DNA of 64,000 bases from Anaerolineae bacterium (lineage in GTDB: Bacteria > Chloroflexota > Anaerolineae > Aggregatilineales > UBA3940). This document shows, piece after piece, positions 3 to 50,875 of this stretch (positions are counted from its first letter, which is position 1; each line of letters starts with the position of its first letter). The stretch is from positions 1,586 through 65,585 of the forward strand of contig DAOTXW010000060.1 of NCBI GenBank assembly GCA_034435035.1, read 5' to 3'. The notes under the pieces were generated by a model. That model was not told the DNA's origin. It did not search any database and saw only the letters and a list, made by a program, of their open reading frames with translations. The translations under genes and the position numbers were made by a program.

Positions 3-1061
3 GTGACCGTGCAGACGATCGATCTGTTTGAGCGCCTGCAGGGATCGCTGAACGAGGCGACCCATCTGTACAACACGGCGCTGGCGCTGAACACGGCCCA
101 CAGCGCCGATGACGTCATCAACACGGCGCTGGCCGAGATCGCACAGGTCAGCGGCGCGGCCCGGATGATGCTCTACCTGGCTGGCCCCGATCCGCGGGGC
201 AGGGTAGCCTACTACACGGAGGTCGTGGCGGGTTGGAACAATGGGACCCTGCGTCGGGTCAGCACCAACCGCCGCCGCCCCGCTGAAGTGCCCCTGCTGA
301 CTCAGTTCCCTCAGCCGCGGGCCAACCTGATTTTCAACAACCTGACCGATCCGCGGCTGACCGAGGAGGTGCGGGCGGCGCTGGCCAGCGAGGAGGCCAC
401 CGGGCTGATGGTCATCCCCCTCACTGCCGGCGCGGCCTGGCTGGGCGTGCTGGCGGTTGAGGCGCAGGCGGAGCAGCAGTTCACCAGCGACCAGGCGCGG
501 CTGTGCCGCACGATCGCCGATCAGGCGGCGCTGGTGCTGGATTCCCAGTTGCTGCTGCAGCGGGCCGAACAGGCTGCCCGCCGGGAGCAGGCGCTGCGCC
601 AGATCACGGAGCGCATCCGCACGGCGGATACACCCGAGGGGGTGGTCGAGATGGCACATGTCGAGCTCCGGCAGGCGCTGGGCCGCACCCCTGAGGAGCT
701 GGAACGCCTGCAGTGGCGTGATGAACAGGCCCTGAGCGCTGAGGAGTGGGACCTGGTGGAGCAGGTCGGCCATCAGGTGGATCTGGCCATCGCCAACCTG
801 CAGCTGATGGCGGCCACCCGGCAGACAGCCCAGCATGAGCAGACCGTTGGCCTGATGGTATCCGAACTGCAGCGGGCCGTGACGGTTGAGGATGTGCTGG
901 AGACGGCGGCCCGCACCCTGCGTGACGTGCTGGGGGATTACGAGGTATCCGTCCGGCTGAGGACGGACCTGCCGGATGGCGCCCGCCTGGTCCTGACGGA
1001 CAGCTACGAGGATGGCGGGCGCAGCCAGGATGAACGAGCAGGTCATTCCGCGGAGGGCTGA
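3..1061 (+). CDS. GAF-domain signalling protein, probably 5'-truncated by the window edge. It is the first visible member of the GAF paralog array.
   Basis: The frame is open from the window edge. It has a GAF-like core (..LMVIPLTAGAAWLGVLAVEAQ.., ..ADQAALVLDSQLLLQRAE..), then a helical linker and a second GAF-like tail (..TAARTLRDVLGDYEVSVRL). Its stop overlaps the next start (TGATG at 1059-1063). Confidence 0.7.
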   Translation: MTVQTIDLFERLQGSLNEATHLYNTALALNTAHSADDVINTALAEIAQVSGAARMMLYLAGPDPRGRVAYYTEVVAGWNNGTLRRVSTNRRRPAEVPLLTQFPQPRANLIFNNLTDPRLTEEVRAALASEEATGLMVIPLTAGAAWLGVLAVEAQAEQQFTSDQARLCRTIADQAALVLDSQLLLQRAEQAARREQALRQITERIRTADTPEGVVEMAHVELRQALGRTPEELERLQWRDEQALSAEEWDLVEQVGHQVDLAIANLQLMAATRQTAQHEQTVGLMVSELQRAVTVEDVLETAARTLRDVLGDYEVSVRLRTDLPDGARLVLTDSYEDGGRSQDERAGHSAEG

Positions 1062-2722: not shown

Positions 2723-2890
2723 GGTATCCCCGCCCGTGCCGGCGCCGGATTATGACTATAATGAGGGCAGCCGTGGGGGCTGGCCGGCTCAGAGCAGCCG
2801 GCGCGTTGCAGGCATGGGGGCCGTGGAGGCCCCTCCCGTGTATGAGGGCCTGAGGGGGAATCCCGGGATCAGGATAGGCGATACAAGCTT

Positions 2891-4699
2891 ATGAGCCAGA
2901 ATACACCATACACCTCAACCGCCCCGACGGGGCGCCTGGGCTGGCTGACCCACGTGGCGGCCCGCGACAGCGCCGCCGCCCGCCGGGGGGCAACCACGGC
3001 TGTGCTGCTGGTGATCGCCGCCGCGGCGACCCTCGTCGTCCTGACCGTGCAGGCGGTGACGGGCATCTTCACGGTGCCCGGCGCCCTGCTGCGCATGCTG
3101 ATCACGCTGGCGGTGGCGGGTGGGCTGTTCATGGCCAACCGCCTCGGCTATACCCGCGCGACCGGCACGGCCATGGCCCTGCTGATCCTGCTGCTGAACT
3201 TCGCCGTGCTGGACATGACCGGCCGCGAGCTGCCGGGCCCGGCGGTGCAGATCGTGCCGATCCTGGTCGCTGGGCTGCTGGGGACGCCTGCCTCCGCGCT
3301 CATTATGACCCTGCTGGCAGTTGCCGGGCACCTGATCGTCAACCTGCAGGCCGACCCCAATTACCTCACCGGGGCGGGCAGCGCGATCAGCGGCCTGCTG
3401 AACCTGTATGCTCAGTTCACCGTCGTTGGCATCGCCTCCTGGCTGTTTTCGCGGGTCAGCGCTCAGGCGCTGGAGGAAAGCAGCCGTTACAGCCTGACGC
3501 TCTCCAGCCGCCAGCTTGAGCTGGAGCAGCGCTTCGATGCCCAGAACCGCTATCTTCAGGCCACCACCGCCATCGCCCGCGCCATCGTCGGCGTGCGCGA
3601 CATCGATCGTCTGCTGGAGCAGGCCGTCGGGCTGGTGCGCGAGACATTCAACTACTATCATGTGCAGGTATTCCTGGTGGACGATGATCGCGAGTATGCG
3701 GTGCTGCGCCAGAGCACCGGCGAGGCCGGCCAGCAGCTGCTGGCCAGCGGCCATCGCCTGCCCGTCGGCAGCCTGAGCGTGATCGGGCAGGTCACGGCCA
3801 CCGGGCGCCCGGTGGTGGCCCGCGATACCGATGTCGATGCCATCCACCGCCGCAACAGGCTGCTGCCCCTGACGCGCTCTGAGATGGCGCTGCCGCTGGT
3901 GTCAGGCGACCAGGTGATCGGCGCGCTCGACCTGCAGAGCACCGAGCCGGACGCCTTCACGCCCGACGTGCTGCCGACCCTGCAGGCTATGGCCGACCAG
4001 CTGGCGATCGCGATTGAGAATGCGCGCCTCTACAGCCAGGCGCAGGACAACCTGCGGCAGCTCCAGAAGCTGTACAGCGAGGTCACCGAGCGATCCTGGA
4101 CCGACTTTCTGGCCTCGGCGGACGATGTTGACCGCCGGCAGGTCTACGGGCCGGAGCCGGCCGCGCTGCGGGCGCAGCGGAGCGATGTGGTGCGCCGCGT
4201 GCTGAACGCCGGCACGGTGCTGGTCTCGTCGGGGCAGGATGGACGCCCCGCCTACCTCGCGGCCCCGATCCTGGTGCGGGGTGAGGTGGTCGGCGTGATC
4301 GGCGTCGAGCCTGAGCGCAGCCGCGACTGGACGCAGGACGATGTGCAGCTCCTCCAGAGCGTGGCGGAGCGCACAGCGCTGGCTGTGGAGAACGCCCGAC
4401 TCTACCTGCAGGCGCAGCGCGCCGCCGACCGCGAGCGCCTGGTCAATACCATCGCCTCGCGCCTGCAGCGCGCGCCCAACCTGGCGATGCTGCTGGAAAG
4501 CGCGGCTCAGGAGCTGGCCAGCGCGCTGGGCACCGATAATGTGTATGCGGAAATCAGCCTTGATCAGCCGCTGCCCCGCCGGGAGGCCGGCGAAGGGTCG
4601 GACCGCGAGGCCGTCGAGGGGGCAGCCCGTCAGCATGACGGCTCGCTGCCGCCGGAGAGCGCCCGCGACGAGGCTGAGGAAGCGAGGGCCAAATCATGA
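2891..4699 (+). CDS. Polytopic membrane GAF sensor protein with no recognisable output domain (array paralog)
   Basis: Multi-TM N-terminus. Array-type GAF (FNYYHVQVFLVDDDREYAVLRQSTGEAGQQLLASGHRLPVGSLSVIGQ..TRSEMALPLVSGDQVIGALDLQS..MADQLAIAIENARLY). Second GAF-like half (APILVRGEVVGVIGVE..AVENARLYLQ). Acidic disordered tail. Confidence 0.85.
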   Translation: MSQNTPYTSTAPTGRLGWLTHVAARDSAAARRGATTAVLLVIAAAATLVVLTVQAVTGIFTVPGALLRMLITLAVAGGLFMANRLGYTRATGTAMALLILLLNFAVLDMTGRELPGPAVQIVPILVAGLLGTPASALIMTLLAVAGHLIVNLQADPNYLTGAGSAISGLLNLYAQFTVVGIASWLFSRVSAQALEESSRYSLTLSSRQLELEQRFDAQNRYLQATTAIARAIVGVRDIDRLLEQAVGLVRETFNYYHVQVFLVDDDREYAVLRQSTGEAGQQLLASGHRLPVGSLSVIGQVTATGRPVVARDTDVDAIHRRNRLLPLTRSEMALPLVSGDQVIGALDLQSTEPDAFTPDVLPTLQAMADQLAIAIENARLYSQAQDNLRQLQKLYSEVTERSWTDFLASADDVDRRQVYGPEPAALRAQRSDVVRRVLNAGTVLVSSGQDGRPAYLAAPILVRGEVVGVIGVEPERSRDWTQDDVQLLQSVAERTALAVENARLYLQAQRAADRERLVNTIASRLQRAPNLAMLLESAAQELASALGTDNVYAEISLDQPLPRREAGEGSDREAVEGAARQHDGSLPPESARDEAEEARAKS

Positions 4700-6942
4700 G
4701 CACGCGTTCACGAAGCGCCCGCGCCATCAATCTGCTGTCGCTGCCGATCGCGGTCAAGCTGGCGATCGGCCTCGGCGCGGTGCTGCTGATCACCGCCCTG
4801 GTCACCAACCAGCTGGTCAGCCAGGTGGTCACCGACGCGCAGCAGCAGGTGGTGCTCCAGGACCTGGAGACGCTCAGCCGCTCCAATGCCTTCCGGGTGG
4901 TTGACGTGCTGGGGCAGGAAATCATCACGCTGAACAACCTCGCCACCACCGCGCTCATCCAGCAGCAGCTGCGTCTGCTGTCCCAGTCTGACGCCGTTTT
5001 CCCGGCTGACGAAGAGACGGTGATCCTGCCCGATGCCCTGCTGACGCAGGAGGTCGTGGCCTTCCTGCAGACGCACCGCGAGTTCAGCACGGTGGCGATC
5101 GTCGATGAAAAGGGCATCGTCCGCGCGGTCGATCCGCTGCCGTTCGAGACCCGCCTCGACCCGGATAACTGGCGCTGGTACGAAGGCGCGCTGCTGGAAG
5201 GCACCTACATTCACGAGCCGGATGAAGACTTCCTGACCGGCGTCAACGGCATCCAGCTGGCCCTGCAGATCCCGGATACCGTCGAACCGGATCGCGCCCT
5301 GGGCGTGGTCTACGCCGTCTGGAACATGAGCAACGTGCTGGATGTCACCCTGGTAGGCACCAGCCGCGAGGGCACGGTGGTCGAGCTGGATGGCTCAGTG
5401 CTGATCTCCGGCACCGAGCCGCTGGGCAGCCTGCTCAACCGCCGCCTGTATGAGCGGGTGCGCGAAGCGCCTGCCGGATCGTTCCGGTTCACCGATGATC
5501 AGGGCCGCGAGTGGCTGTATGGCTTCGTCAACATGAGCACCCTGAATCTCGGCGATGAGCGCATCCGCAACCTGCGCTGGATCTTCCTGACCCGCCAGCC
5601 CCTCTCGGCCATCGAGGCCAACGTGAACCTGCTGGCCGGGCGGCTCCGGCTGGCCGTCGGTGCCAGCGCGCTGGTCGTCACGCTGGCGGTGGCCGGGTTC
5701 GCCACGCTGCTGCTGCGCCCGCTGCGCCGTCTGACCGACGCCGCGGCGCAGATCCGGCGCGGCAACCTGAGCGCGCCGATCCCCGATCTGCCCACTGATG
5801 AGGTGGGGCAGCTGGCCGGGGTGCTGCGCGGCCTGGTCGAGCAGCTGCTGGAGCGTGTGTCTGAGCTGCGTGCGGCTGTGCAGGTCTCCCATGCGGCGGT
5901 GCTGACGCTGGACCTTTCCACCATGCTCGAAGATGTGGTGCGCTCGCTGACCACCCAGTTCGGCTACCCGGATGTGCGCGTCTATCTGGTCAACCCGGCG
6001 GGCAACCGCGCCGTCATTCAGGCGGCAGCCGGCGCCGAGGGCGAGCGCCTGCTGCGTGCCGGTCACCGGGTGCCGGTCGATGAAACCACGCTGATCGGGC
6101 GGGCCATCCTGCTCGGCGAGCCGCAGATCGGCTCGGAGCGCGAGCGCCTGCGCGAGGCGGGCCTGATGACCGGGCGAGCCGAGCTGGCCATCCCGTTGCA
6201 GTCAGGCTCCCGCCCGCTGGGGGTCCTCTATCTGCTGGCCCGCCGCCTGGGCGCCTTCGAGGCGGAAGATGTGGACCTGCTGCGCCTGATCGCCGACCAG
6301 GTGAGCGCGACCATCGCCAACGCCCGCCTGTTTGAGCAGTCCGCGGCTAACCTGGCGGAAATTGAAGCCCTGAACCGCCGCCTGACCCGCGGCGGCTGGG
6401 AAGAGTACCTCGGCGAGGGCGGCGTCATCCGCCATACACCGGACCCGGAGCGGCGCTGGCCGGCGCTGGCGGCGGGCGAAGGCGGCAGCGCGGCCGCTGT
6501 CCAGGCCGCCACCTATGTCGAACCGGACGGCCGGATCGTGCTGGCCGCGCCGGTGCTGCTGCGCGGCGAGGTGATCGGCACGCTGGCCGCGACGCGCCCG
6601 GCGGGCGCTCGCTGGTCGCGCGATGAAGTGGCCCTGATGGAATCGGTCGCCGCCCGTATGGCGATGATCGCCGAAAGCATCCGCCTGGTTGACGAGTCGA
6701 GCCGACGCGCCCAGCGTGAGCAGCGCGTCAACGAGGTCTCCGCCAGCCTGTTGCAGCGGGCCACCAGCGTGGATGCCGTGCTGCGCGGGGCGCTGGATGA
6801 ACTGAACGAGGTGCTGGGCTCCGACCGTATTGCGCTGCGGCTGGGCCCGGCCGCGCCGGATGGCGACCGCCAGCCAGGGGCAGAGCGCGACGCCGGGGAT
6901 GAGGAGCGCCGGGGCCAGGGCGTCAATGGGGACAGGGAGTAG
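4696..6942 (+). CDS. Membrane sensor with TM, Cache-like extracytoplasmic domain, TM, HAMP and a divergent GAF; no output domain (array paralog)
   Basis: ATGA start/stop overlap with the upstream gene at 4696-4699. A HAMP-like segment follows the second TM (RPLRRLTDAAAQIRRGNLSAPIPDLPTDEVGQLAGVLRGLVEQL). The GAF is a more divergent copy (FGYPDVRVYLVNPAGNRAV..AELAIPLQSGSRPLGVLYL..IANARLFEQ). The LNRRLTRGGW linker is present. Confidence 0.85.
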   Translation: MSTRSRSARAINLLSLPIAVKLAIGLGAVLLITALVTNQLVSQVVTDAQQQVVLQDLETLSRSNAFRVVDVLGQEIITLNNLATTALIQQQLRLLSQSDAVFPADEETVILPDALLTQEVVAFLQTHREFSTVAIVDEKGIVRAVDPLPFETRLDPDNWRWYEGALLEGTYIHEPDEDFLTGVNGIQLALQIPDTVEPDRALGVVYAVWNMSNVLDVTLVGTSREGTVVELDGSVLISGTEPLGSLLNRRLYERVREAPAGSFRFTDDQGREWLYGFVNMSTLNLGDERIRNLRWIFLTRQPLSAIEANVNLLAGRLRLAVGASALVVTLAVAGFATLLLRPLRRLTDAAAQIRRGNLSAPIPDLPTDEVGQLAGVLRGLVEQLLERVSELRAAVQVSHAAVLTLDLSTMLEDVVRSLTTQFGYPDVRVYLVNPAGNRAVIQAAAGAEGERLLRAGHRVPVDETTLIGRAILLGEPQIGSERERLREAGLMTGRAELAIPLQSGSRPLGVLYLLARRLGAFEAEDVDLLRLIADQVSATIANARLFEQSAANLAEIEALNRRLTRGGWEEYLGEGGVIRHTPDPERRWPALAAGEGGSAAAVQAATYVEPDGRIVLAAPVLLRGEVIGTLAATRPAGARWSRDEVALMESVAARMAMIAESIRLVDESSRRAQREQRVNEVSASLLQRATSVDAVLRGALDELNEVLGSDRIALRLGPAAPDGDRQPGAERDAGDEERRGQGVNGDRE

Positions 6943-6948
6943 CCGCCG

Positions 6949-8730
6949 ATGTCCGATCGTGTAGAAACTGTTTCGCAGGGAGCGGGGCCGCGCGGGCTGC
7001 TGATTGCGCTGCGCCGTCTGGGGCGGCGCCTGTTTAGCATCCGCTACCGCTATGAGGATGTGCTCGACCGGCAGCGGGCTTCGGCGCTGGGCGTTATGTG
7101 CCTGCTGTTTGGCCTGATGGGCATGCTGGGCACACTGGCGCTGATCCTTTTCTTCCCGGAGGTTGCGCCCCGCCGCATGGCGATCCCGAATGTCGTCATG
7201 GGCCTTCTCTACCTGCTGCTGGTGCAGCAGGTGCAGACGGGCCGCCTGAGGCGGGCCAGCTTCGGCTTCATCGCGCTGGCTTTAGCCGTCCCCACCATCC
7301 TGAACCTGGCTTTCCAGTTCATCCCCTCGCAGGCGGCCTTCCTGAGTCTGTCGATCCCGGTGGTGGCTGCTTCCCTGCTGCTGGGGCCGCTGTGGTCCTT
7401 TGCGGCTGCCGGCCTGGCGATGCTCAGCGTGGCGGGCATCAGCCTGATGGAGTATCAGCGGCTGGCCGCGGCGCTGGGCGCGGATGCCCTGGCCGGCGAG
7501 GCGGCCCGGCTGCGCCTGGTCGCGCTGATCGTCGCCTTCCTGATGAGCATGCTTGCGCTGTTCGCCTGGCTGCTGACCACCAGCCTGACGCGCTGGGCGG
7601 AAAGCGCTCAGCGTCGCGCCCGCCAGCTGGAAGCCGCCGCCGTCATTAACGAGACGGCAGCGGTGACTGTTAACTTAAGCACGCTGCTGAATGTCGTGGT
7701 GGAGCGTATCCGCGACGCGTTCGGCTTCTACCACGCGCAGGTGTTCCTGATCGACCCGGAGGGACGTCTGGCCCGCCTGCAGGCCAGCACGGGCCGCGCC
7801 GGCCTGGCGCTGCTGGCGCGCGGCCACGCGCTGCGTGTCGGCTCGCAGTCGATGGTCGGGCAGTGTGCCTTCCTGGGCGAACCGATCGTGGTCAATGACA
7901 CCAGCCTCAGTTCCGTCTGGCGGCCCAACGAACTCCTGCCCGACACCCGCGCCGAGCTGTCGCTGCCGCTGCGGGTGGGCGACAATGTGATCGGGGTGCT
8001 GGATGTGCAGTCCACCACGCCCGGCGTCTTTGAGCCGGACGACGTGCGCTCGCTCAGCATCATGGCCCAGCAGCTCGCCACGACGATTGAGAAGACGCGT
8101 CTGCTGGACGCGCTGCAGGCGCGCGCTGAGGAGAACCAGCGCCTGTACGAAGAGTCGCAGTCCAGCCTGAGGCAGATCGAGGACCTGAACCGCCGCCTGA
8201 CCCGCGAAGGCTGGAGTGACTACCTGGCCGCGCGGCGGGCCGGCGGCACGCTGGGCTACACGCTGGCTCAGGGCGCGATCGAGGCGGACTCGAGCTGGAC
8301 GGCGCCGATGCGGCAGGCTTACCAGGGCGAACACAGCGTGATCGTCAGGCAGGATCAGAATGCGCATATCGCGGCGGTTCCCCTGCGCGTCCGTGGTGAG
8401 GTGATCGGCGTGCTGGAGATGGAGCGCGGGGGCAACCGCCCGTGGACCGATGAAGACCTGGAGATCGCCGAGACGCTGGTTGACCGCCTGTCGGTCGCCA
8501 TCGAGAACGCACGCCTGTTTGAGCAGGCGACGCAGGCCACCGAACGCGAGCATGTCATCAACCAGATCGCGCAGGATGTCCAGTCGGCGCAGACGGTGGA
8601 CGACATCCTCCAGTCCGCGCTGGCAGACCTGCGGTCGGTGCTGGGCGCGTCGCGCGGCATTGTGCAGATCAGCCCCCGGGCCGAGACCCGGTCGCGTACC
8701 GGTCACACCGGGCCGCTGGGGCGGTCGTAA
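6949..8730 (+). CDS. Polytopic membrane GAF sensor protein with no recognisable output domain (array paralog)
   Basis: Only a 6-nt gap from the upstream stop. Multi-TM N-terminus. Array-type GAF (FGFYHAQVFLIDPEGRLARLQASTGRAGLALLARGHALRVGSQSMVGQ..IGVLDVQS). LNRRLTREGW linker. Second GAF-like half (VPLRVRGEVIGVLEME..AIENARLFEQ). Confidence 0.85.
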   Translation: MSDRVETVSQGAGPRGLLIALRRLGRRLFSIRYRYEDVLDRQRASALGVMCLLFGLMGMLGTLALILFFPEVAPRRMAIPNVVMGLLYLLLVQQVQTGRLRRASFGFIALALAVPTILNLAFQFIPSQAAFLSLSIPVVAASLLLGPLWSFAAAGLAMLSVAGISLMEYQRLAAALGADALAGEAARLRLVALIVAFLMSMLALFAWLLTTSLTRWAESAQRRARQLEAAAVINETAAVTVNLSTLLNVVVERIRDAFGFYHAQVFLIDPEGRLARLQASTGRAGLALLARGHALRVGSQSMVGQCAFLGEPIVVNDTSLSSVWRPNELLPDTRAELSLPLRVGDNVIGVLDVQSTTPGVFEPDDVRSLSIMAQQLATTIEKTRLLDALQARAEENQRLYEESQSSLRQIEDLNRRLTREGWSDYLAARRAGGTLGYTLAQGAIEADSSWTAPMRQAYQGEHSVIVRQDQNAHIAAVPLRVRGEVIGVLEMERGGNRPWTDEDLEIAETLVDRLSVAIENARLFEQATQATEREHVINQIAQDVQSAQTVDDILQSALADLRSVLGASRGIVQISPRAETRSRTGHTGPLGRS

Positions 8731-8742
8731 AGGAGGGCGAGG

Positions 8743-10956
8743 GTGCAGCGCCTCTTCAGTCGTTTAGCCTGGAATGAGCTTTCTATTCGCGCCAAGATCG
8801 GCGTGGTGGTGGTGCTGCTGGTGGCGGTGATCATCGTCTTCACGCTGATTGCCATCAGCTCGGTCACTGCGCTGGGCAGCCAGGTGCGGGCGGGCGTCAA
8901 CACCGCGGTCGAGGTCCGATCCGCCTCGCAGGAAGTGCTGGTCTCCATTGAGACGCTGCAGCGGATTCAGGGGCGGGCTGTGGATGACCTGCGCAACCCC
9001 GCGTTCAACCCTGAAACCGTGCCGCTGCGCGATGAATACCAGCGGGAGCTGGCACGCCTGAACGATGACCTGCTGCCGCGCCTGCGCCTGTTGATGCTGG
9101 AGGTCGCCACCGAGGAGCAGGCGGAGGCGCTGGCGGTGGATTTCGGCAACCTGGCGACGGCACTGGCCGAAAGCGAAGCCGCGTTCGAACGCACCTATCA
9201 GATCATCACCCTGCTGGCGGCGCCGGAGACGGGCGAACTGGCCCTGCTGACGGCCAGCGGGGATGACCTGGAAGCGGGCATTGCCAGTCTTTCCTCGCCG
9301 GGCTTTTCCGAGCAAATGACGCTGATCCGCAGCCTGGAAGGCAGCTTCGTGCGGACAGGTTCCACGGAGGACCTGCTGGCGCTGCGTCAGGCCATCGAGG
9401 CATTCCGCACCGACTATGAGACGCGCGTCGGGCGGCCCTTCCAGCTCAGCCAGACCCTGCAGGATATTGATGCCTATGAACAGCAGGTCGATGCTGTGGC
9501 GAATCTCCTGCCCCAGGTTGACCTGTCAAACAGTGCCGCCCTGACCAGCCTGGAACGGACTCGCAGCACAGCCCTGCGGATTGCCGCCATCGCTGCCCAG
9601 CAGGCGGATGATCAGGTCTTCAACATCGAGGCCATCACGACAACGGCCGCCCGCCCGCTGGCGCTGTCGGCGCTCGGCCAGATCCTGTTGATCGGCCTGC
9701 TGATGGGCCTGTTTGCCCGCAGCCTGGTGCGCAGCCTGCAGAATCTGCTGGAGACGTCTCGCCGCTTCGAGCAGGGCAACTTCCGTGCCCGCGCCCGGGT
9801 GGAAGGGGGCGATGAGTTCAGCCAGCTGGGCCGCAGCTTCAATTCGATGGCCTCGCAGCTTGATATGCTGGTGGGCGGCCTGGAGGCCCGCGTCGCGGAG
9901 CGTACTCGCGACCTGAGCATCACGGCGGAGATCGGACGCGCCGTGCTGGCGGCCCGCGATCCTCAGGTGCTGATGCAGGAAGTGGTCGAGCTGATTCGCC
10001 AGCGTTTTGACTTCTATCATGCCCAGGTGTTCCTGGTCGATGAAGAAGGCCGCTACGCCCGCCTCGCGGCCAGCACCGGCGCGGTCGGGCGCGAGCTGCT
10101 GGCCCGCCGCCACGCGCTGGGGGTGGGATCGCAGTCGGTCATCGGGCAGGTCACGGCGACCGGTGAGCCAGTGATTGCGCTGGATACAGACACCAGCGCG
10201 GTGCACCGCCGCAACGAACTGCTGCCCGACACGCGCTCGGAGATGGCGCTGCCCATGCGCATCGGCGATCAGGTCATCGGCGCCCTGGATGTGCAGAGTG
10301 TGGCGCCCAACGCCTTCGACCAGGATACGGTCGCCGTGTTCCAGATCATGGCCGACCAGCTGGCGATCGCGCTGGACAATGCGCGGCTGGCCGACCGGCT
10401 GCGCCAGGCGGTGGCCGATCTGGAGAATGTCGAGCGGCGCGTGACGGCGGAAATGTGGCGGGCCTATCAGCAGGCACGCCAGCCCGCCGGCGTACTGGGA
10501 TACGAGATGCAGGGCGAGGTGCTGCTGCCAAGCACCGGCGAGGCGCCGCCTGAGGCCCTGCAGGAAGCGATCCGCACCGGGCAGTCGGTCGTTCGCGGCA
10601 ACGGTGAGGGGGAATATCAGGTAGCGCTTCCGATCCGGGTGCGCGGCGAGGTGATCGGGGCCTTCGGCTTCGGCGGAGAGACGCTCCGCAGCCTCACGGG
10701 CGACGATGTGGCTCTGCTGGAAGCGGTGATCGACCGGGTGGGCCTGGCTCTGGAGAACATGCGCCTGGTTGAGCAGACCGCCCGCCGCGCGGAATATGAG
10801 CAGATCGTCAATGAGATCACGGCCAAGATCGTGGGTTCGACGGATGTCAATTTCATCCTGCAAACCACGGTGAAGGAGCTGGGGCGTGCCCTGCGCGCTC
10901 CGCAGACCAGCCTCCAGCTCCGCAGTGAGAATAGGGTGGAAGGCGGCCATGAGTAG
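8743..10956 (+). CDS. Membrane sensor with TM, helical extracytoplasmic domain, TM, HAMP and GAF; no output domain (array paralog)
   Basis: GTG start with AGGAGG 7 nt upstream. HAMP-like segment (RSLVRSLQNLLETSRRFEQGNFRARARVEGGDEFSQLGRSFNSMASQL). Array-type GAF (FDFYHAQVFLVDEEGRYARLAASTGAVGRELLARRHALGVGSQSVIGQ..IGALDVQS..MADQLAIALDNARL). Second GAF-like half (LPIRVRGEVIGAFGF..). Confidence 0.85.
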   Translation: MQRLFSRLAWNELSIRAKIGVVVVLLVAVIIVFTLIAISSVTALGSQVRAGVNTAVEVRSASQEVLVSIETLQRIQGRAVDDLRNPAFNPETVPLRDEYQRELARLNDDLLPRLRLLMLEVATEEQAEALAVDFGNLATALAESEAAFERTYQIITLLAAPETGELALLTASGDDLEAGIASLSSPGFSEQMTLIRSLEGSFVRTGSTEDLLALRQAIEAFRTDYETRVGRPFQLSQTLQDIDAYEQQVDAVANLLPQVDLSNSAALTSLERTRSTALRIAAIAAQQADDQVFNIEAITTTAARPLALSALGQILLIGLLMGLFARSLVRSLQNLLETSRRFEQGNFRARARVEGGDEFSQLGRSFNSMASQLDMLVGGLEARVAERTRDLSITAEIGRAVLAARDPQVLMQEVVELIRQRFDFYHAQVFLVDEEGRYARLAASTGAVGRELLARRHALGVGSQSVIGQVTATGEPVIALDTDTSAVHRRNELLPDTRSEMALPMRIGDQVIGALDVQSVAPNAFDQDTVAVFQIMADQLAIALDNARLADRLRQAVADLENVERRVTAEMWRAYQQARQPAGVLGYEMQGEVLLPSTGEAPPEALQEAIRTGQSVVRGNGEGEYQVALPIRVRGEVIGAFGFGGETLRSLTGDDVALLEAVIDRVGLALENMRLVEQTARRAEYEQIVNEITAKIVGSTDVNFILQTTVKELGRALRAPQTSLQLRSENRVEGGHE

Positions 10957-13900
10957 CAGACCCTCCCCGGTATCTCGTTGGTTTGCCCGGCAGCGCCGGC
11001 TGGGCGCGCTGCTGCTGGCGTTGTTCGTGCTGCTGGCGCTGGCGCCGACCGGCGCGCTGACGATCGTGTCAACGGTGCGCGACAACCAGAGTGCACGCGA
11101 ATCGGCCACGGCCCTGCTGAGCGCCTATGCCGATACCGGCGTTCGCGCCCTTGACCAGTGGGTCGTGGATACCCTTAACATCATCCGCTTCCAGCTTCAG
11201 GACAGAGAGGCGCGCCAGCTGATGATCGCGCTGGTAGCAGGCCCGCCGGAAGAATCGGGCCGGACGGCCCTGACCGCGGAGGCGGAGTTCACGCAGGATG
11301 TGCGCGATCTGGTCAACAGCACGGATTTCGATTACCTCGTCCTGCTGGACAGCCGCGGAATCGTGCGCGGCAGCAGCGATGCGCAGCTCCTCGGGCGCGA
11401 TCTCAGCAGCGAGCTGTGGTTCCGGTCGGCCCTCCAGAACCCGGAGGAAGCCCGGCTGTTCGGCCCGCTGCGCGATGGTGTCAGCGGCCAGCAGGGCCTG
11501 TTCTTCGCCGGGGCGCTGTCTTCCCCGGAGGGTGGCGCTCCGCTGGGCGTGCTGGGCGGCCGCGTGGGCTTCAGCCCGCTGGCCACGCTGCTGAGTCAGA
11601 ACCTGCCCGGCGGCGTCCTGGGCGCCACCGGCGATTACTTCCTGGTGCGCGAGGGGCAGCAGTACGTGACGCCGCCCCGCTTCGCGCCCGGCGCCGCGCT
11701 GGCGCTGGATGAGATCCTCCCCACGGCGCTGGCGGGCGTCGATGGCTCCGGCGAGTGGATCGACTACCGCGGTGAGCCGGTGCTGGGTGTTTATCGCTCG
11801 ATCGAACCACTGGGCATGACGCTGATCGTCAAGCAGGACGTGGCCGACGCTCTGGTGGCGACCCGGCAGCGCACGCAGTCTAACCTGGCGCTGGGGGGCG
11901 GCATCGGCCTGATCGCGCTGGTGCTGGGCTTCCTGGCGGCGCGCAGCGTCACCCGCCCGCTCAGCCAGCTGAGCCAGACGGCTGTCGATATCTCGCGCGG
12001 GGACCTGTCCGTGCAGATCCCGGAGTTCGCCATTACCGAACTGGGGCAGGTGGCGCACTCGCTCAATACGATGACCCGCCAGATCAGGAGCCTGCTGGAA
12101 TCCCAGGAAGCGACGATCCGCGCCCGCACGCGGCAGCTCCAGATCACGGCCCAGATCGGCCGCGCCATCGCGGCGGAGACCGATCTCGATCGCCTGCTGA
12201 ATGTAACCATCAACAGCATTTGCGAGCAGCTGGGTTACTATCACGCGCAGGTCTTTCTGATCGATGACCTGCGACAGTACGCTGTCCTGCGGGCCAGTAT
12301 GGGTGAAGCGGGCGCCGCGATGATCGAGCGCAGCCACAAGCTGCCGGTCGGTTCGCGCTCGGTGATCGGCCAGGCGACCTCAATCGGCGAGCCTGTGCTG
12401 GCCAGTGACACCATGCGGGCTGAATACTGGATGCCGAACCCGCTGCTGCCCGATACGCGCTCCGAGCTGGCTGTCCCGATCCGCATCGGCGATCAGGTCA
12501 TCGGGGCGCTGGATGTGCAGTCCGACCGCGTCGACGCCTTCGATGAAGAGACGATCGCAGCCCTCCAGACCGTGGCCGACCAGCTCGCCGTCGCGCTGCG
12601 CAACGCCCAGCTTTTTGACGAAAAGGAGGGCCTGATCTCCGCCTCCGTGCAGCTGACGCAGATGCTCACCCGGGATAACTGGGACTCCTACCTGCGCGGA
12701 CAGCGCTCGCCGCAGGGGGCGCTGGGCTACCGCTACGATCTCAGCAGCGTGCAGCCCGTGACCGGCGAGGGCGAGGGCGACAACGGCTACGGCGTGCGGG
12801 TTCCGATCGCGCTGCGCGGCCAGGTGATCGGCGAGCTGGCCGCCGAGCTGCCGGATGGCGAGGTCCTGGGCGATCAGGAGCGGCAGCTGGTGGGCGAGGT
12901 GCTGGATCGCGTCGCGCTGGCTCTGGAAAACGCCCGCCTGTTTGAGCAGACGCAGCTTTCGCTGCAGGAATCAAACCGCCTCTATCAGGCCAGCCGCCGC
13001 ATCACCGACGCGGACACGGCGGAGATGCTGGCTCAGGAGCTGGTCGAGCTGGCGGCCGTCGAGAACGCGGAGCGTGTGGCGCTCTTCCTGCTGGATGATC
13101 CCGATATGCCCCCCGGCGATCGGTGGGTGACGATGGCGAGCCTGTGGAGCCGTTCTCCTGATGATCCGGTGGCGCGGTTGGCCGTCCGGCTGCGGACCGG
13201 CCAGCCGCCCCTGCTGGGGATCGAGGGCACGCCGCCGGAAGGCCGGCTGGTGCATGACGTGGAAACCGATCCTGAACTGTCGGCGGCGGCCCGCGATAAC
13301 CTCCGCCAGTTGAATGTGCGCTCGGCGGCCACGTTCCCGCTGATTACGGGCCGCCGCACCGTGGGCTGGCTGGTCGTGCACAGCCTCAGCCAGCCGGGAG
13401 CCTTCGGGGAAAGTGTCGTGCGTTTCTACCGCACCCTGGCCGATCAGGCCGCCACGGCCCTGGAAGGGCTGCGTCTCCTGGAGCAGGCCCAGAGCCGCGC
13501 CCGCCGTCTGCAGGCCACTAACGAGGTGTCCCGCGCGGCTTCCTCCATCCTGAACCCCGACATCCTGCTGCCGCTGGTGGTCAGCCAGATCAGCGAGGCC
13601 TTCGGCTACTATCATGTGCAGATCTTCCTGCTGGATGAGATGGGCGAATGGGCGGTCCTGCGGGCCTCCACCGGCGAGGTGGGCAAGCAGCTGCTGGCCC
13701 GCGACCACCGCCTGCAGGTCGGCTCCCAGTCGGTGATCGGGCAGGTCACCAGCACCGGCCAGCCCTTCATCGTCCGCGATACGGATACTGACCCGGTACA
13801 CCGCCGCAACGAACTGCTGCCGCAGACGCGCTCAGAGATGGCCATCCCGCTCAAGACGGGCGACCGGGTGGTGGGGGTGCTGGATGTGCAGAGCACCCAG

Positions 13901-16540
13901 ATCAACGCCTTCGACAGCGAGGCGCAGGCGATCCTCCAGTCGCTGGCCGGCGAGCTGGCGGTCACGATGGAGAACGCGCAGCTCTTCCAGGAGATTCAGG
14001 ACCGTGTGGCCGAGCTGACCACCATCAACCTGGTGTCGCAGGCTGTGTCGCGGGCCAATACCCTGGACGAGGTCTATGAGGCCGTCGGCACGCAGCTGAC
14101 ACGGACGTTCGGCGCGCGCTCCGGCTTTCTGGCTGTGCTGCGGCCCGATCAGGCGATGATCGACGTGCCCATCTTCATCGATCAGGGCATGATCATCACG
14201 GACATCCCGCCCCAGCCGCTGGGGACCGGCCTCACCAGCCACGTCATCCGCACGCGCCAGCCGCTGCTGATCAACGAGAACCTGATGGAGGAGGCAGCCC
14301 GGCTGGGAGCTGTCGTCATCGGCGAGGCCAGCAAGAGCCTGCTGGCAGTCCCGCTGCTGATGGGCGAGGACGTGGTGGGGGCGATCAGCATTCAGGATCA
14401 GGAGCAGGAGCACGCCTACACCGAGGCCCACCTCCGCCAGCTCACCACCCTGGCCGCCTATATCGCGGTCAAGATCCGCAACGCCGAGCTGCTGGAGCAG
14501 GCGCAGACCAGCGCCGGCGAGCTGGGCTTCCTGTTCAATGTCACCCGCGCCGCAGTCGGCGCCAGCGACCTGGATACCTCGCTGATCGGCGTGGCGGACA
14601 TCCTGCGCAGCGAGATCGCCGGCGCTGAGGCGGCGGTGATCTACCTCCTGTCTGAAGATACCCGGCAGCTTGAAGCGCACGCGGCTGCGGGTTACGGCGG
14701 CAGCCTGTCCTACCGCAGTCCGGTGAACCGCGATGAGGGCCTGATCGGCCAGGTGGCCAGGAGCGCCCGCTCGCTGGTGGTGGAAGACACCCGGACCCAT
14801 GAGCTGGGCGCCGATGCCGCTGCGGCTGGCGTCCGTGCCGCTGTGCTGGTGCCGCTGCTCACCCCGGCCGGGCTGATCGGCGTGCTGGTTGTCCAGAGCA
14901 CCCGCCCCGGCGTCTTTGACGAAAATGACCTGCGCTTGCTGGAGACCGCCTCCGGCACGCTGACGGCCATCATCCAGAACGCGCGGCTGCTGGATGAGAT
15001 CAGCCGCGCCAATGAGCAGCTCAAAGAACTGGACCGCCTGAAGACGCAGTTCCTGGCCAACATGAGCCACGAGCTGCGTACCCCCCTGAACTCGATCATC
15101 GGCTTCTCGCGCGTCATGCTCAAGGGGATTGACGGCGAGCTCAACGATATGCAGACGCAGGACCTCTCCACGATCTATAACTCCGGCCAGCATCTGCTCG
15201 GCCTGATCAATAACATCCTGGACCTGTCCAAGATCGAAGCCCGCATGATGGAGATCCAGCCCGAATACATGGAGCTGGGCGAGATCGTGGACAGCGTGCT
15301 GGCCGCTGCCAAGGGCCTGACCAAGGACCAGCCCATCGAGCTGTACCGCGACCTTGAGCCGGGCCTGCCGCAGGTCTGGGGCGACCCGCAGCGCATCCGT
15401 CAGGTGCTGCTCAATCTGGTTTCCAACGCCGCCAAGTTCACCCAGGAAGGCAGCATCACCGTGCGTGCCTTCCGCCGCGACGGCGACCCGGAGACCGGCG
15501 CGGCGCCGTGCGTGCAGGTGGACGTGATCGATACCGGGATCGGCATCCCGGCTGATAAGCTGGACACCATCTTCGAGGCGTTCCAGCAGGTCGATGGCTC
15601 GACCACGCGCCAGTACGAAGGCACCGGGTTGGGCCTGCCGATCTCCAAGAACTTCATCGACCTGCACGGCGGGCAGATGTGGGTCACCAGCCAGGTCGGA
15701 GTCGGCTCGACCTTCAGCTTCACGGTGCCGCTGCACCCGGCGGTGACGGAGGCGTCGGAGACGGTGGCCAGGGCCGAGGGCGATACGCGCCCGCTGGTGC
15801 TGGCCGTTGACGATGAACCGGGCGTGATCGACCTGTACAGCCGCTACCTGGAGAAGGAAGGCTATGCCGTCCTGGGCCTGAGCCATGCCCTCGATCTGGT
15901 GCGGCAGGCGCAGGAGCTGCAGCCGCAGGCGATCCTGCTCGACCTCAACCTGCCGGGCAAGAATGGCTGGCTGGCCATCGCCGACCTCAGGCAGAACCTG
16001 GCGACCCGCGACATCCCGGTCATCGTATGCAGCATCGAAGAAGACCGCGAGCGGGCGGCTCAGGCTGGCGTGGCGGGCTACCTGATCAAGCCGATCATCG
16101 AGGACGACCTGATCGGCGCGCTGCGGCAGGTGTCCATGCCGGCGCCGGTTGCCCACCAGAGCGTGCTGGTGATCGACCCCTATGCCGATCACGCCGAGTA
16201 CATCAGGGCCGCCCTGGAATCGACCGGGCTTTACCGGGTCCGGATCGTCGGGGCCGGGCTGGAGGGGCTGCAGACGCTGCAGGAAGGCCGGCCCGATGCG
16301 CTGGTGCTGGACTTTGACCTGCCGGACATGGATGGCTATGGCCTGCTGGTATCCCTGCGCTCCCAGGCCGAGACCCGCCATCTGCCGGTGGTGGTGCTCA
16401 CCGCCCGCCCGGTCAGTGAGGAAGAGCGGGCGCGGCTGGGCGGCGACGGCGTGGCCTTCCTGAGCAAGCATGACTACGATGCCGTGCGCCTGATCGAGAG
16501 TATGGCGGCCGCGGTCGCCCACCACGGTGACGCTGGCTGA
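10949..16540 (+). CDS. Giant hybrid sensor histidine kinase: TM, Cache-like domain, TM, HAMP, about six GAF-like modules, HisKA, HATPase and two REC domains
   Basis: The ATG at 10949 overlaps the upstream stop (ATGAGTAG), so the ORF-track start at 10886 is probably too far upstream. HAMP (RPLSQLSQTAVDISRGDLSVQIPEF). Two array-type GAF copies (LGYYHAQVFLIDD.., FGYYHVQIFLLDE..). H-box NMSHELRTPLNSI with the His codon at 15068-15070. ATPase G-box GTGLGLPISKNFIDLHGG. REC acceptor regions ..AILLDLNLPGKNG.. and ..ALVLDFDLPDMDG... Confidence 0.9.
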   Translation: MSSRPSPVSRWFARQRRLGALLLALFVLLALAPTGALTIVSTVRDNQSARESATALLSAYADTGVRALDQWVVDTLNIIRFQLQDREARQLMIALVAGPPEESGRTALTAEAEFTQDVRDLVNSTDFDYLVLLDSRGIVRGSSDAQLLGRDLSSELWFRSALQNPEEARLFGPLRDGVSGQQGLFFAGALSSPEGGAPLGVLGGRVGFSPLATLLSQNLPGGVLGATGDYFLVREGQQYVTPPRFAPGAALALDEILPTALAGVDGSGEWIDYRGEPVLGVYRSIEPLGMTLIVKQDVADALVATRQRTQSNLALGGGIGLIALVLGFLAARSVTRPLSQLSQTAVDISRGDLSVQIPEFAITELGQVAHSLNTMTRQIRSLLESQEATIRARTRQLQITAQIGRAIAAETDLDRLLNVTINSICEQLGYYHAQVFLIDDLRQYAVLRASMGEAGAAMIERSHKLPVGSRSVIGQATSIGEPVLASDTMRAEYWMPNPLLPDTRSELAVPIRIGDQVIGALDVQSDRVDAFDEETIAALQTVADQLAVALRNAQLFDEKEGLISASVQLTQMLTRDNWDSYLRGQRSPQGALGYRYDLSSVQPVTGEGEGDNGYGVRVPIALRGQVIGELAAELPDGEVLGDQERQLVGEVLDRVALALENARLFEQTQLSLQESNRLYQASRRITDADTAEMLAQELVELAAVENAERVALFLLDDPDMPPGDRWVTMASLWSRSPDDPVARLAVRLRTGQPPLLGIEGTPPEGRLVHDVETDPELSAAARDNLRQLNVRSAATFPLITGRRTVGWLVVHSLSQPGAFGESVVRFYRTLADQAATALEGLRLLEQAQSRARRLQATNEVSRAASSILNPDILLPLVVSQISEAFGYYHVQIFLLDEMGEWAVLRASTGEVGKQLLARDHRLQVGSQSVIGQVTSTGQPFIVRDTDTDPVHRRNELLPQTRSEMAIPLKTGDRVVGVLDVQSTQINAFDSEAQAILQSLAGELAVTMENAQLFQEIQDRVAELTTINLVSQAVSRANTLDEVYEAVGTQLTRTFGARSGFLAVLRPDQAMIDVPIFIDQGMIITDIPPQPLGTGLTSHVIRTRQPLLINENLMEEAARLGAVVIGEASKSLLAVPLLMGEDVVGAISIQDQEQEHAYTEAHLRQLTTLAAYIAVKIRNAELLEQAQTSAGELGFLFNVTRAAVGASDLDTSLIGVADILRSEIAGAEAAVIYLLSEDTRQLEAHAAAGYGGSLSYRSPVNRDEGLIGQVARSARSLVVEDTRTHELGADAAAAGVRAAVLVPLLTPAGLIGVLVVQSTRPGVFDENDLRLLETASGTLTAIIQNARLLDEISRANEQLKELDRLKTQFLANMSHELRTPLNSIIGFSRVMLKGIDGELNDMQTQDLSTIYNSGQHLLGLINNILDLSKIEARMMEIQPEYMELGEIVDSVLAAAKGLTKDQPIELYRDLEPGLPQVWGDPQRIRQVLLNLVSNAAKFTQEGSITVRAFRRDGDPETGAAPCVQVDVIDTGIGIPADKLDTIFEAFQQVDGSTTRQYEGTGLGLPISKNFIDLHGGQMWVTSQVGVGSTFSFTVPLHPAVTEASETVARAEGDTRPLVLAVDDEPGVIDLYSRYLEKEGYAVLGLSHALDLVRQAQELQPQAILLDLNLPGKNGWLAIADLRQNLATRDIPVIVCSIEEDRERAAQAGVAGYLIKPIIEDDLIGALRQVSMPAPVAHQSVLVIDPYADHAEYIRAALESTGLYRVRIVGAGLEGLQTLQEGRPDALVLDFDLPDMDGYGLLVSLRSQAETRHLPVVVLTARPVSEEERARLGGDGVAFLSKHDYDAVRLIESMAAAVAHHGDAG

Positions 16541-16579
16541 TCGACCGGTCCGAGGCCCGATACCTGAAAGCGATAGTCC

Positions 16580-18244: not shown

Positions 18245-18286
18245 TCACCATGACCCTCGCTGGACAGGAGAAATGTTGAGGCGAGC

Positions 18287-19351
18287 GTGACTTACCCACC
18301 GCAGGCGCGCGGAGGACTCCGCGCCGGGCTGCTGGCCGGGCTGCTGACCCCGGTCTTCATGGGGATGGCGCCGATCTTCGGTAAGCTGGCAATCCGCTCT
18401 GGCCTGGATCCCTACACGCTGGCAGCGATCCGCACCGCAGCGGCCGCCGCGGTCCTGTGGGTAGTCTACCTGATCTTCTTCCGCCGGTTCATCTATATCT
18501 TCCCGGCCGGCCTGCTGGGCACGGCGGCGGTGGGGGCCGTCAACGGGCTGGGATCGCTGCTGTATTATAACGGCCTGCTCCTGCTGGATGACGCCTCGCT
18601 GGCCCAGCTGCTGAACATGCTGTATGTGGTCTTCGTCATGCTGCTGACGCGCATTTACGGCGGCCATATCTCACGGATCAGCCTGCTGCGCGGCGCCCTG
18701 GCTTTCCTGGCCGTCTACCTGCTGACGGGCTTCGACGGGGCGGGCCGCGGCGCGGTGCACTGGCTGGGCGTCGGGCTGATGATCGGTTCGGCCTTCACGT
18801 ATGCCTACCATGTCGTCATCGGCCAGCGCGGGATGTTCGAGATGCCCGCGCCGACCATGGCGCTGTACGCCCTGACGTGGATGGCGGTGACGGTGGTGCT
18901 GGGGCGTCTGCTGCTGGGCCGCTACCTGATGGGGTCGTGGGCGCCGGTGGTGCCGGCTGGCTGGCTGTTCGTGATCGGCCTGACGGCGGTCACCGCCCTG
19001 TCCCGGGTGACCCTGTTCGCTGGCGTGCGGAACCTGGGCGCGCTGCAGACCCTGCTGCTCAGCGCTGCCGAGATCGGCGTGACCCTGCTGGCGGCCTTTC
19101 TGATGCTGGGCGAGAGCCTGGCGCTGCCCCAGTGGATCGGCGTGCTGGTGCTGCTGGCGAGTGTGGCGCTCTCGCGCTGGGATTCCGATATCCGCGATGC
19201 GGCCTACCGCCCGCTGCTGGTGCCCAGCCCGCTGGGCGGCCTGCCGCTGGGCAGCACGCCCCTGACGCCCAACCGCTTCTCCACCATCTCCCGTCTGTAC
19301 CGCCGCCGCCCGCGCTCCAAGCTGGCCGATGCGCCGCCCGGCCCCACCTAG
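18287..19351 (+). CDS. EamA/DMT-family transporter (10-TM drug/metabolite exporter type)
   Basis: Two-fold repeated 5-TM hydrophobic pattern. The N-terminus ..GMAPIFGKLAIRSGLDPYTLAAIR.. is typical of EamA domains. Its stop shares a CTAG palindrome with the convergent gene. Confidence 0.75.
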   Translation: MTYPPQARGGLRAGLLAGLLTPVFMGMAPIFGKLAIRSGLDPYTLAAIRTAAAAAVLWVVYLIFFRRFIYIFPAGLLGTAAVGAVNGLGSLLYYNGLLLLDDASLAQLLNMLYVVFVMLLTRIYGGHISRISLLRGALAFLAVYLLTGFDGAGRGAVHWLGVGLMIGSAFTYAYHVVIGQRGMFEMPAPTMALYALTWMAVTVVLGRLLLGRYLMGSWAPVVPAGWLFVIGLTAVTALSRVTLFAGVRNLGALQTLLLSAAEIGVTLLAAFLMLGESLALPQWIGVLVLLASVALSRWDSDIRDAAYRPLLVPSPLGGLPLGSTPLTPNRFSTISRLYRRRPRSKLADAPPGPT

Positions 19352-23670: not shown

Positions 23671-23687
23671 CGGGAGGGGGCGAAGGT

Positions 23688-50861: not shown

Positions 50862-50875
50862 CGCGGGGGGTTCCC

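Follow-up and report, generated by a model that had tools for sequence, protein, structure and literature searches.

Many output-less GAF sensors are encoded with one hybrid histidine kinase in a conserved operon of Anaerolineae/Chloroflexota

A two-component system is commonly depicted as a pair of one sensor kinase and one regulator. We know of very few systems, besides chemotaxis, in which several dedicated output-less receptors converge on one kinase. In Wsp-type chemosensory pathways, the signal ends in an enzyme controlled by a receiver (REC) domain, not in a transcription factor. Here we describe a tandem array of GAF-domain genes at positions 3-16540 of a 64,000-nucleotide (nt) stretch of DNA from an Anaerolineae bacterium (contig DAOTXW010000060.1, positions 1,586 to 65,585 of the forward strand), the whole of which is referred to below as the window. 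The array belongs to a conserved Anaerolineae/Chloroflexota operon in which many output-less sensors are encoded with one kinase. Its parts (GAF, HAMP, Cache, HisKA, REC, PALP and EamA) are ordinary and its organisation is not; it looks like an apparently undescribed many-sensors-to-one-kinase signalling system. In the literature searched, we found no description of GAF arrays in Anaerolineae/Chloroflexi or of their output-less GAF sensors, nor of the fusion between a threonine synthase (ThrC)-like domain and REC that is encoded behind the kinase.

Several described systems share single traits with this locus. NreA of Staphylococcus carnosus is reported to be a GAF-only protein that is co-encoded with the sensor kinase NreB and controls it (PMC8199190, PMC12423327). 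Plant ethylene receptors are reported to contact a separate histidine kinase, MHZ1/OsHK1, via their GAF domain and to alter its activity (PMC6981129). ParA-like ATPases position chemoreceptor arrays, as do ParC/ParP in Vibrio and PpfA in Rhodobacter (PMC5706961, PMC11407121).

Composition and conservation of the operon

Each membrane sensor consists of a variable input region, an optional HAMP domain, a first GAF domain (GAF-A), a signalling helix, a minimal second GAF domain (mini GAF-B) and a helical C-terminal stub, with no transmitter domain. Positions 3-16540 are filled by seven co-directional open reading frames (ORFs) on the + strand (g1 to g7), which abut or overlap. The earlier note on this DNA had listed them as seven tandem genes, and its coordinates and junctions are all exact in the sequence: TGATG at 1059-1063, ATGA at 4696-4699 and ATGAGTAG at 10949-10956, with intergenic gaps of 6 nt (6943-6948) and 12 nt (8731-8742). 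Between g2 and g3 lie 168 nt. The whole unit extends beyond these seven genes and reads a REC-only gene, g1, g2-g6, the kinase gene g7, a gene for a ThrC-like pyridoxal phosphate (PLP) enzyme fused to REC (ThrC-REC; 16580-18244, +; 554 amino acids (aa), starting 39 nt after the kinase gene) and a gene for an exporter of the EamA/DMT family (18287-19351, +; Pfam EamA, with approximately 8-10 predicted transmembrane (TM) helices). A contig from the same organism (L085) extends 1.5 kb further upstream than the window and carries the complete g1 and, ahead of it, the REC-only gene. The suggestion that the array might continue upstream was therefore not borne out, as L085 shows only the rest of g1 and the REC-only gene, and no more sensors.

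Of g1 (3-1061, +), the window holds the C-terminal 352 aa of a 678-aa protein whose gene starts 978 nt upstream of the window. The whole protein has three GAF domains, one GAF remnant and two repeats of the stub (Pfam reports GAF only), and it is predicted to be soluble, with no N-terminal TM segment. The next five genes encode output-less sensors. The 553-aa g2 (1061-2722, +), the exact protein of which is already on record, has approximately five TM segments followed by GAF-A, a long LNRRLTGEGW helix, mini GAF-B and the stub. In the 602-aa g3 (2891-4699, +), a polytopic membrane domain precedes GAF-A, GAF-B and the stub, and the ortholog in L001 gives a weak MASE11 match. The 748-aa g4 (4696-6942, +) is composed of a Cache-like periplasmic domain between two TM segments, HAMP, a divergent GAF-A, GAF-B and the stub, and the 593-aa g5 (6949-8730, +) of five to six TM segments, GAF-A, the helix, mini GAF-B, the stub and a tail. 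The 737-aa g6 (8743-10956, +) has a helical periplasmic domain between two TM segments, followed by HAMP, an S-helix (VAERTRDL), GAF-A, GAF-B and the stub. The last gene, g7 (10949-16540, +), encodes a hybrid histidine kinase of 1863 aa.

All seven proteins exceed the Pfam gathering cut-offs for GAF profiles (PF01590, PF13185, PF13492). By Pfam and NCBIfam, g1-g6 contain GAF only, apart from HAMP in g4 and g6, and neither HisKA or another dimerisation and histidine phosphotransfer (DHp) domain nor HATPase_c was found in these six proteins. NCBIfam gave only partial GAF and HAMP matches far below cut-off, including matches of the HAMP region to models of methyl-accepting chemotaxis proteins (MCPs). 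Neither g1-g7 nor 68 related sensors contain MCPsignal (PF00015), and CheA, CheW, CheB and CheR were likewise not found. The earlier note had seen no output domain in the first six proteins and had called for a domain scan, which agrees with it, as do the AlphaFold model of g5 and its Foldseek matches; the kinase core that it had confined to the last gene (HisKA, HATPase and two REC domains) is likewise placed there by Pfam. The N-terminal inputs are as diverse as had been described, comprising polytopic membrane domains, dCache-HAMP and helical-HAMP arrangements. HAMP is found in g4, g6 and g7 with E-values of approximately 1e-12 (1.7e-12 in g4), straight after the second predicted TM segment, and in none of g1, g2, g3 and g5. 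The dCache_1 scores of g4 (25 bits) and g7 (30.4 bits) lie under the Pfam cut-off of 45, and dCache_1 is recorded in the L001 and L003 orthologs of both.

GAF modules in the window were located using an iterated profile seeded on the GAF of g2, which found two modules in each of g2-g6, six in g7, and one unlinked GAF (49371-50135, - strand). The GAF-A copies of g2, g3, g5 and g6 and both copies in g7 are 45-58% identical to each other, and 15-31% identical to the g1 GAF, the other g7 GAFs and the unlinked GAF (15-26% for the last). The shared GAF subtype proposed for the array is thus far beyond chance. Seven clear copies had been counted; g7 has two F.(F/Y)YH.Q(V/I)FL motifs, and g2, g3, g5 and g6 have a single one apiece, so that six copies stand and the seventh does not. 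The copy in g4 is divergent, as had been noted (27-34% identity to the other GAF-A copies), and the motif scan also bore out that the g1 GAF lacks the motif. The LNRRLT.EGW linker that was said to follow the GAF in most of the proteins is exact, as LNRRLT.(E/G)GW, in g2, g4 and g5, and degenerate in g3, g6 and g7. The "second GAF-like half" behind this linker is indeed present, but in the AlphaFold model it is a complete minimal GAF fold, not a half.

Species-representative genomes were scanned for related loci, which yielded 80 further loci; ORFs were called, and their products were classified by profiles grown from the domains in the window. The sensor class was defined as co-directional GAF proteins with no kinase core, REC or PALP, so that the 0 of 216 complete sensors with a match to a histidine kinase core is true by construction. 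Approximately 45 Anaerolineae/Chloroflexota loci have arrays of 3 to at least 9 sensors. Among the 216 complete sensors, 178 have predicted TM segments and 82 have HAMP. Pfam analysis of 68 sensors from 21 other loci found GAF in every one, HAMP in 31 and dCache_1 in 19, as well as other Cache domains, PAS, MASE11 and 7TM; no kinase, cyclase, phosphodiesterase or DNA-binding output domain was found by Pfam in these 68 sensors from other genomes. Metagenome-assembled genomes of Anaerolineae/Chloroflexota contain many full-length g5 orthologs (50-70% identity), all of them annotated only as "GAF domain-containing".

Neighbourhood conservation, another check that had been proposed, was found in related genomes. 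L001 and L003 contain all seven genes, ThrC-REC and EamA in the same order and as 1:1 orthologs, with REC-only genes in front. Each gene best matches its own positional counterpart (for g5, 783 bits, versus 248 bits for the best paralog), which indicates that the paralogs are old rather than recent duplicates. REC-only genes precede the arrays in ten loci (L001, L003, L005, L008, L020, L023, L029, L037, L080 and L085). The junctions between two sensors or between a sensor and the kinase number 197; at 93 of them the genes overlap, in 49 cases by exactly 4 nt, and 150 junctions are no longer than 30 nt. A GAF-rich histidine kinase follows the array in all 19 loci in which the 3' end of the array is available.

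The operons occur in different styles. Type I, that of the window, has a membrane-bound kinase with its own Cache-HAMP-GAF-A-GAF-B module. Type II (L005, L008, L029, L037 and others) consists of two REC genes, a soluble poly-GAF protein of approximately 1000 aa, four sensors and a kinase of approximately 2000 aa. In Type III, which comprises 17 loci (e.g., L007, L011, L016 and L038), a ParA/MinD-like ATPase gene lies between the last sensor gene and the kinase gene. This ATPase has approximately 260 aa, a KGGVAKTT Walker A motif and a PF13614 match (2e-49), and is exemplified by L007:7468-8250; no homolog of it is present in the window, whose type of operon does not include ParA.

Sensors, kinase and putative output enzyme

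The AlphaFold model of g5, built with 72 homologs, has a mean predicted local distance difference test (pLDDT) value of 89.5. It predicts a bundle of 5-6 TM helices, a long helix, GAF-A (residues 243-360), a 70-residue helix with LNRRLTREGW, a five-stranded minimal GAF-B (437-494), a 46-residue helix and a short helix (501-565), and a disordered but conserved tail. Compared with the Protein Data Bank using Foldseek, the model matched only GAF and tandem-GAF structures (PtsP GAF, free methionine-R-sulfoxide reductase (fRMsr), PDE2A/PDE5 and phytochromes), with a TM-score of 0.86 on the PtsP GAF 3ci6. The GAF domains of PtsP (EI-Ntr) and fRMsr are the nearest solved ones by both sequence and fold. 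Residues that are invariant in the GAF-A of g5 (H293, G298, S299, S301, G304, N327, L330, P331, T333 and E336) lie mostly in loops and strands, not in helices, and the consensus of the 68 distant sensors keeps the motif. A bilin, cyclic nucleotide or fRMsr type of GAF was ruled out, as the alignment has no conserved Cys and no fRMsr GVCG motif.

The stub, which is common to all six proteins, comprises the final 45-55 residues and aligns with the start of a GAF domain (helix, helix and first strand). Its consensus across the family is QrRAeRE...I......D...iL..A..EL...LG. In 186 of the 216 complete sensors, it lies within 40 aa of the C-terminus, and a median of 13 residues separates the two. 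Among 72 g5 orthologs at 29-70% identity, 16 stub positions are at least 90% conserved, and conservation of the stub equals that of GAF-A. The last strand of the stub is nearly invariant in these orthologs, yet it is of low pLDDT or disordered in the monomer model, a pattern to be expected if it folds against a partner protein. No His is conserved in the stub, and a cryptic DHp or phospho-acceptor function was therefore ruled out.

A profile of GAF-B and stub gave 83,917 matches among 1.8 billion representatives, mostly to giant poly-GAF proteins with 6-21 repeats. Those inspected as representatives (P0244-P0393) have 1100-3950 aa and carry the GAF-B/stub unit 6-21 times, and some of them, among others P0244, P0246 and P0267, also end just after a stub. 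The repeat unit is thus very common, and this search is uninformative on the stub-terminated class.

The kinase g7 runs TM, Cache-like domain, TM, HAMP, GAF-A, GAF-B, three further GAFs with a second GAF-A, HisKA, HATPase_c, REC and REC. Pfam recognised HAMP, 5-6 GAF domains, HisKA (9.6e-21), HATPase_c (4e-29) and two Response_reg domains (2e-34), and the H-box reads MSHELRTPL. The called start is the ATG at 10949, and the 1863-aa product matches an exact sequence in the protein collection. Its first approximately 700 aa are an additional, eighth copy of the sensor module, with which the sensors are co-linear; the sensors end just past the first strand of a domain that continues as a complete GAF in g7. 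Of the 17 Type III kinases, the 11 examined have no predicted TM segment or input domain. Their N-terminus comprises a conserved KRLDKLFxDI helix, a disordered stretch and the C-terminal half of a GAF-B-like module, and is followed by further GAFs and the kinase core. Complementation of a split GAF, in which the stub completes the first GAF of the kinase, was considered and ruled out, because the alignment places a whole GAF-B-type module at the N-terminus of these soluble kinases, starting with the LNRRLT-like helix (KRLDKLFxDI) and containing a disordered insert.

The protein encoded at 16580-18244 consists of an N-terminal four-Cys zinc ribbon, a threonine-synthase-like PLP domain, a disordered linker of approximately 40 residues and a C-terminal REC domain (Pfam PALP and Response_reg, the latter at 5.9e-17). 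Its fold is that of threonine synthase, a fold-type II PLP enzyme (Foldseek TM-score of 0.85 to 2zsj and 1uin). Across 62 orthologs, the GSFKDR motif with the PLP lysine (Lys111) is invariant and the four Cys are invariant or nearly so; in the receiver, E439, D440, D484 and K536 never vary, and conservation at T514 is at least 90%. The ThrC-like domain scores below the NCBIfam equivalog cut-offs (247 versus 303 for NF006050 and 152.7 versus 167.1 for TIGR00260). In addition, the NSVNPxRxEGQKT segment of solved threonine synthases, which we take to bind the substrate phosphate in the Thermus thermophilus threonine synthase structure, is replaced by DRGIKSIAAKESMKT, and the replacement is conserved in the 62 orthologs (the T. 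thermophilus residues N154, S155 and R160 correspond in the alignment to R203, G204 and A210). On the basis of these scores and this replacement, the domain may catalyse a related but different reaction, and its substrate may not be O-phosphohomoserine.

Orthologs of ThrC-REC fall into at least 120 clusters, each with PALP and REC; for at least 15 of these clusters, the recorded length of the longest contig equals that of a g5 ortholog, which suggests that the two genes share a contig. Wherever the sequence continues, ThrC-REC comes next after the GAF kinase, including in distant loci at 58-60% identity, and is then usually followed by EamA (L001, L003, L007, L011, L015, L016, L038, L041, L042 and L086). 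No synteny across loci was found beyond EamA, be it for a cysK/cysE pair or for other downstream genes. In the window, that pair lies 3 kb downstream of EamA (22645-24419, +) and consists of a cysteine-synthase-like PALP gene and a serine acetyltransferase gene that overlap by 4 nt. No DNA-binding response regulator was found in the unit, in which ThrC-REC is the only conserved fusion of REC to an effector. ThrC-REC is probably the phospho-controlled output, so that the final output would be an enzyme and an exporter rather than transcription. The most economical reading, which we infer from this gene content, is phospho-controlled synthesis and export of an amino-acid-like compound.

Elsewhere in the window, a second and unrelated case of an output-less GAF protein beside a kinase was seen at 49371-51934 (-), where a HAMP-HisKA_3 kinase (50876-51934), a NarL/GerE regulator (50214-50879) and a stand-alone 252-aa GAF protein (49371-50129) have an NreB/NreC/NreA-like composition in the order kinase, regulator, GAF; kinase-regulator pairs homologous to this trio occur in L049, L052, L054 and L058. 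The window probably adjoins the replication origin, given the presence of dnaA at 36580-38067 (+; DnaA_N, Bac_DnaA and Bac_DnaA_C); the slope of the cumulative GC skew changes near 38 kb. A 94-nt tRNA-Ala(cgc) called by ARAGORN at 39660-39753 (+) lies inside long ORFs on both strands, has no Rfam match and is probably a false call. Other genes encode an 804-aa fusion of Peptidase_S24 and FGE-sulfatase (33186-35600, -) and a 650-aa protein (53223-55175, +) in which Pfam recognises only a 7TM N-terminal region typical of histidine kinases.

Proposed mechanism and alternatives

We propose that the sensors act in trans on the co-encoded kinase, and give this reading a probability of approximately 0.5. 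The sensors have no catalytic output of their own, which points to action in trans, and the kinase is their invariable genomic partner. The same arrangement exists in covalent form in g7, which shows that a sensor module can drive this kinase in cis. Type III kinases are soluble and input-less, and would thus need input in trans. The stub is also suggestive, since the combination of conservation with low pLDDT in the predicted monomer is typical of a partner-binding segment. Judging from the ortholog alignments, the sensors, stub included, are under strong purifying selection, and the junctions indicate that translational coupling is pervasive, both from sensor to sensor and from sensor to a kinase built of the same GAF modules.

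In the proposed mechanism, each sensor would detect its own membrane or extracytoplasmic cue, and a conformational change would run down the helical spine from GAF-A through GAF-B to the C-terminal stub. The sensor would then act on the kinase through mixed oligomers formed by the shared GAF and helix modules, or through docking of the stub, in a manner similar to that of chemoreceptors with CheA or of the GAF protein NreA with NreB. The kinase would set the phosphorylation of its own two REC domains, of the upstream REC protein and of ThrC-REC. The output would be an altered activity of the ThrC-like enzyme, and hence of an amino-acid-like metabolite that EamA may export.

Several observations weigh against this proposal. 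The 168-nt g2-g3 spacer (2723-2890, +) holds a -10-like CTATAATG (TATAAT box) at 2756-2763, 128 nt 5' of the g3 start. It occurs once in the 64-kb window of 69% G+C, where 0.21 occurrences are expected, and the equivalent spacer of L003 holds CCTATAATGG; the spacers are otherwise unconserved. This possible internal promoter suggests that the unit may not be one transcript, and it could divide the unit into REC-g1-g2 and g3-EamA. A scan for promoter consensus and terminators gave nothing above chance, the g2-g3 spacer included, and Rfam gave no match. A route for phosphotransfer from the hybrid kinase to ThrC-REC is also less than complete, as no histidine phosphotransfer (HPt) protein was seen in the operon. 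In L006, the array goes on past the ParA-like gene with a poly-GAF protein that has no kinase core. The L001 kinase ortholog (13910-19481) is divided into three ORFs of 556, 1112 and 220 aa by two frame changes inside conserved sequence. The contig has long-read naming, and the split is probably due to assembly indels rather than natural, so we rejected it as Rosetta-stone support. Finally, the loops of GAF-A are near-invariant, and all paralogs could read one cytoplasmic ligand instead of relaying N-terminal signals.

This last point leads to an alternative in which the GAF-A pocket of the paralogs and of the kinase binds one cytoplasmic small molecule, such as an amino-acid-like metabolite and possibly a substrate or product of the ThrC-like enzyme. 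The membrane and periplasmic parts would then localise or gate the proteins, and the sensors would buffer or report the ligand rather than distinct external signals. The placement of the invariant GAF-A residues mostly in loops and strands fits such a pocket, as does the unchanged motif in the 68 distant sensors. The GAF domains of PtsP and fRMsr, to which GAF-A is nearest, bind amino or keto acids, and an enzyme of amino-acid type is co-encoded, usually with the exporter next to it. On the other hand, the GAF-A of g4 is divergent, and Cache, HAMP and the S-helix are classical outside-in transmitters that it would be unparsimonious to ignore. A common ligand, which we regard as unlikely, would moreover be compatible with coupling to the kinase and not exclusive of it. 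It appears quite unlikely that the sensors are only co-regulated with the kinase and that the stub acts on other partners, such as the REC-only proteins, the poly-GAF g1 or the ParA-like ATPase, for example by forming a scaffold at the membrane or a platform for positioning in filamentous cells. Such partners are at hand, as REC-only genes stand ahead of the arrays in many loci and the ATPase is embedded in 17 operons, and the stub is conserved yet matches no known kinase-docking motif. However, the kinase is the sole invariable enzymatic partner and has both GAF-A and GAF-B in common with the sensors, and ParA is absent from the operon type of the window.

The co-linearity of the sensors with the N-terminal 700 aa of the kinase, ending just ahead of its kinase-specific part, would also suit decoys that heterodimerise with this half of the kinase, block the productive kinase dimer and so titrate rather than activate it. 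PDE2A-type tandem-GAF proteins dimerise along the same helices, and the PDE2A structure (1mc0) is among the Foldseek matches. This sub-variant of the trans-acting model, with the opposite sign of effect, seems very improbable; it is inapplicable to the soluble kinases of the ParA type, which lack the GAF-A part of the module, and five to nine decoys with elaborate inputs seem excessive. That the sensors are functionless, decaying remnants of duplicated kinases that have lost their transmitter halves might be read from the stub itself, which resembles a truncation scar in that it consists of the opening helices and strand of one more GAF. The conservation data, as we interpret the alignments, effectively refute this: the reading frames are unbroken, orthologs in different genomes share 50-70% identity and the stub ranks among their best conserved parts, one truncation point is shared by 186 of 216 proteins from dozens of lineages, and the start/stop overlaps are conserved.

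Returning to action in trans on the kinase, the ParA-like ATPase embedded in some operons hints, by analogy, at a large positioned assembly. A wider conjecture, and a decidedly improbable one, is that of a GAF-based receptor array as a second, independently evolved many-receptors-one-kinase machine, comparable to chemoreceptor arrays and positioned by ParA in some lineages. Instead of motility or transcription, it would govern, through phosphorylation, the production of an amino-acid-derived intercellular signal by the ThrC-like enzyme and its release by the exporter in filamentous Chloroflexota, with GAF-A perhaps sensing the same molecule in an autocrine loop.

The operon is widespread and strongly conserved in a phylum that has received little study and is abundant in sludge, sediments and mats; its parts are sufficiently well defined for testing, and it raises the question of how a signal exits a protein that ends in a helical stub. 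A receiver-controlled PLP enzyme beside an exporter could reveal a new metabolite signal or a new control of amino-acid metabolism. The family can also be given a curated definition (input domain, GAF-A, LNRRLT helix, mini GAF-B and a stub no more than 40 aa from the C-terminus), which would serve hundreds of entries now named "GAF domain-containing protein".

Comparison with described systems

The nearest known systems in function are chemoreceptor-CheA arrays, NreA-NreB and the GAF contact of ethylene receptors with MHZ1, and the operon belongs to none of these. It resembles MCP-CheA/CheW arrays in having many membrane receptors with diverse Cache, HAMP and helical inputs, no enzymatic output and a helical-hairpin end, together with a single, sometimes soluble kinase, REC-only proteins and a ParA/MinD-like ATPase (in 17 related loci here). 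Unlike those arrays, it has no MCPsignal, CheA, CheW, CheB or CheR; the kinase is a hybrid of HisKA type, the cytoplasmic part of the receptors is GAF-GAF rather than a long coiled-coil hairpin, and the output is an enzyme, not a motor. The Wsp-type pathways offer a likeness at the endpoint, which here is a ThrC-like PLP protein with a C-terminal REC domain, followed by EamA.

NreA-NreB-NreC shares with the operon an output-less GAF protein co-encoded with a histidine kinase, and trans control is established for NreA. However, NreA is a single soluble nitrate-binding GAF, whereas the sensors described here are membrane tandem-GAF proteins of 553-748 aa with input domains, in batteries of 3 to at least 9. 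The ethylene receptors provide the case of a membrane receptor that affects a separate histidine kinase through GAF, as is proposed here, but they are eukaryotic, have degenerate kinase domains of their own, are not encoded in an operon and have no tandem GAF-stub. The tandem-GAF modules of PDE2/PDE5 and cyanobacterial CyaB (Foldseek 1mc0, 3lfv and 3mf0) have the same succession of GAF-A, long connecting helix and GAF-B; in those proteins the module binds cyclic nucleotides and a catalytic domain follows, whereas here GAF-B is minimal and only a 45-aa stub follows.

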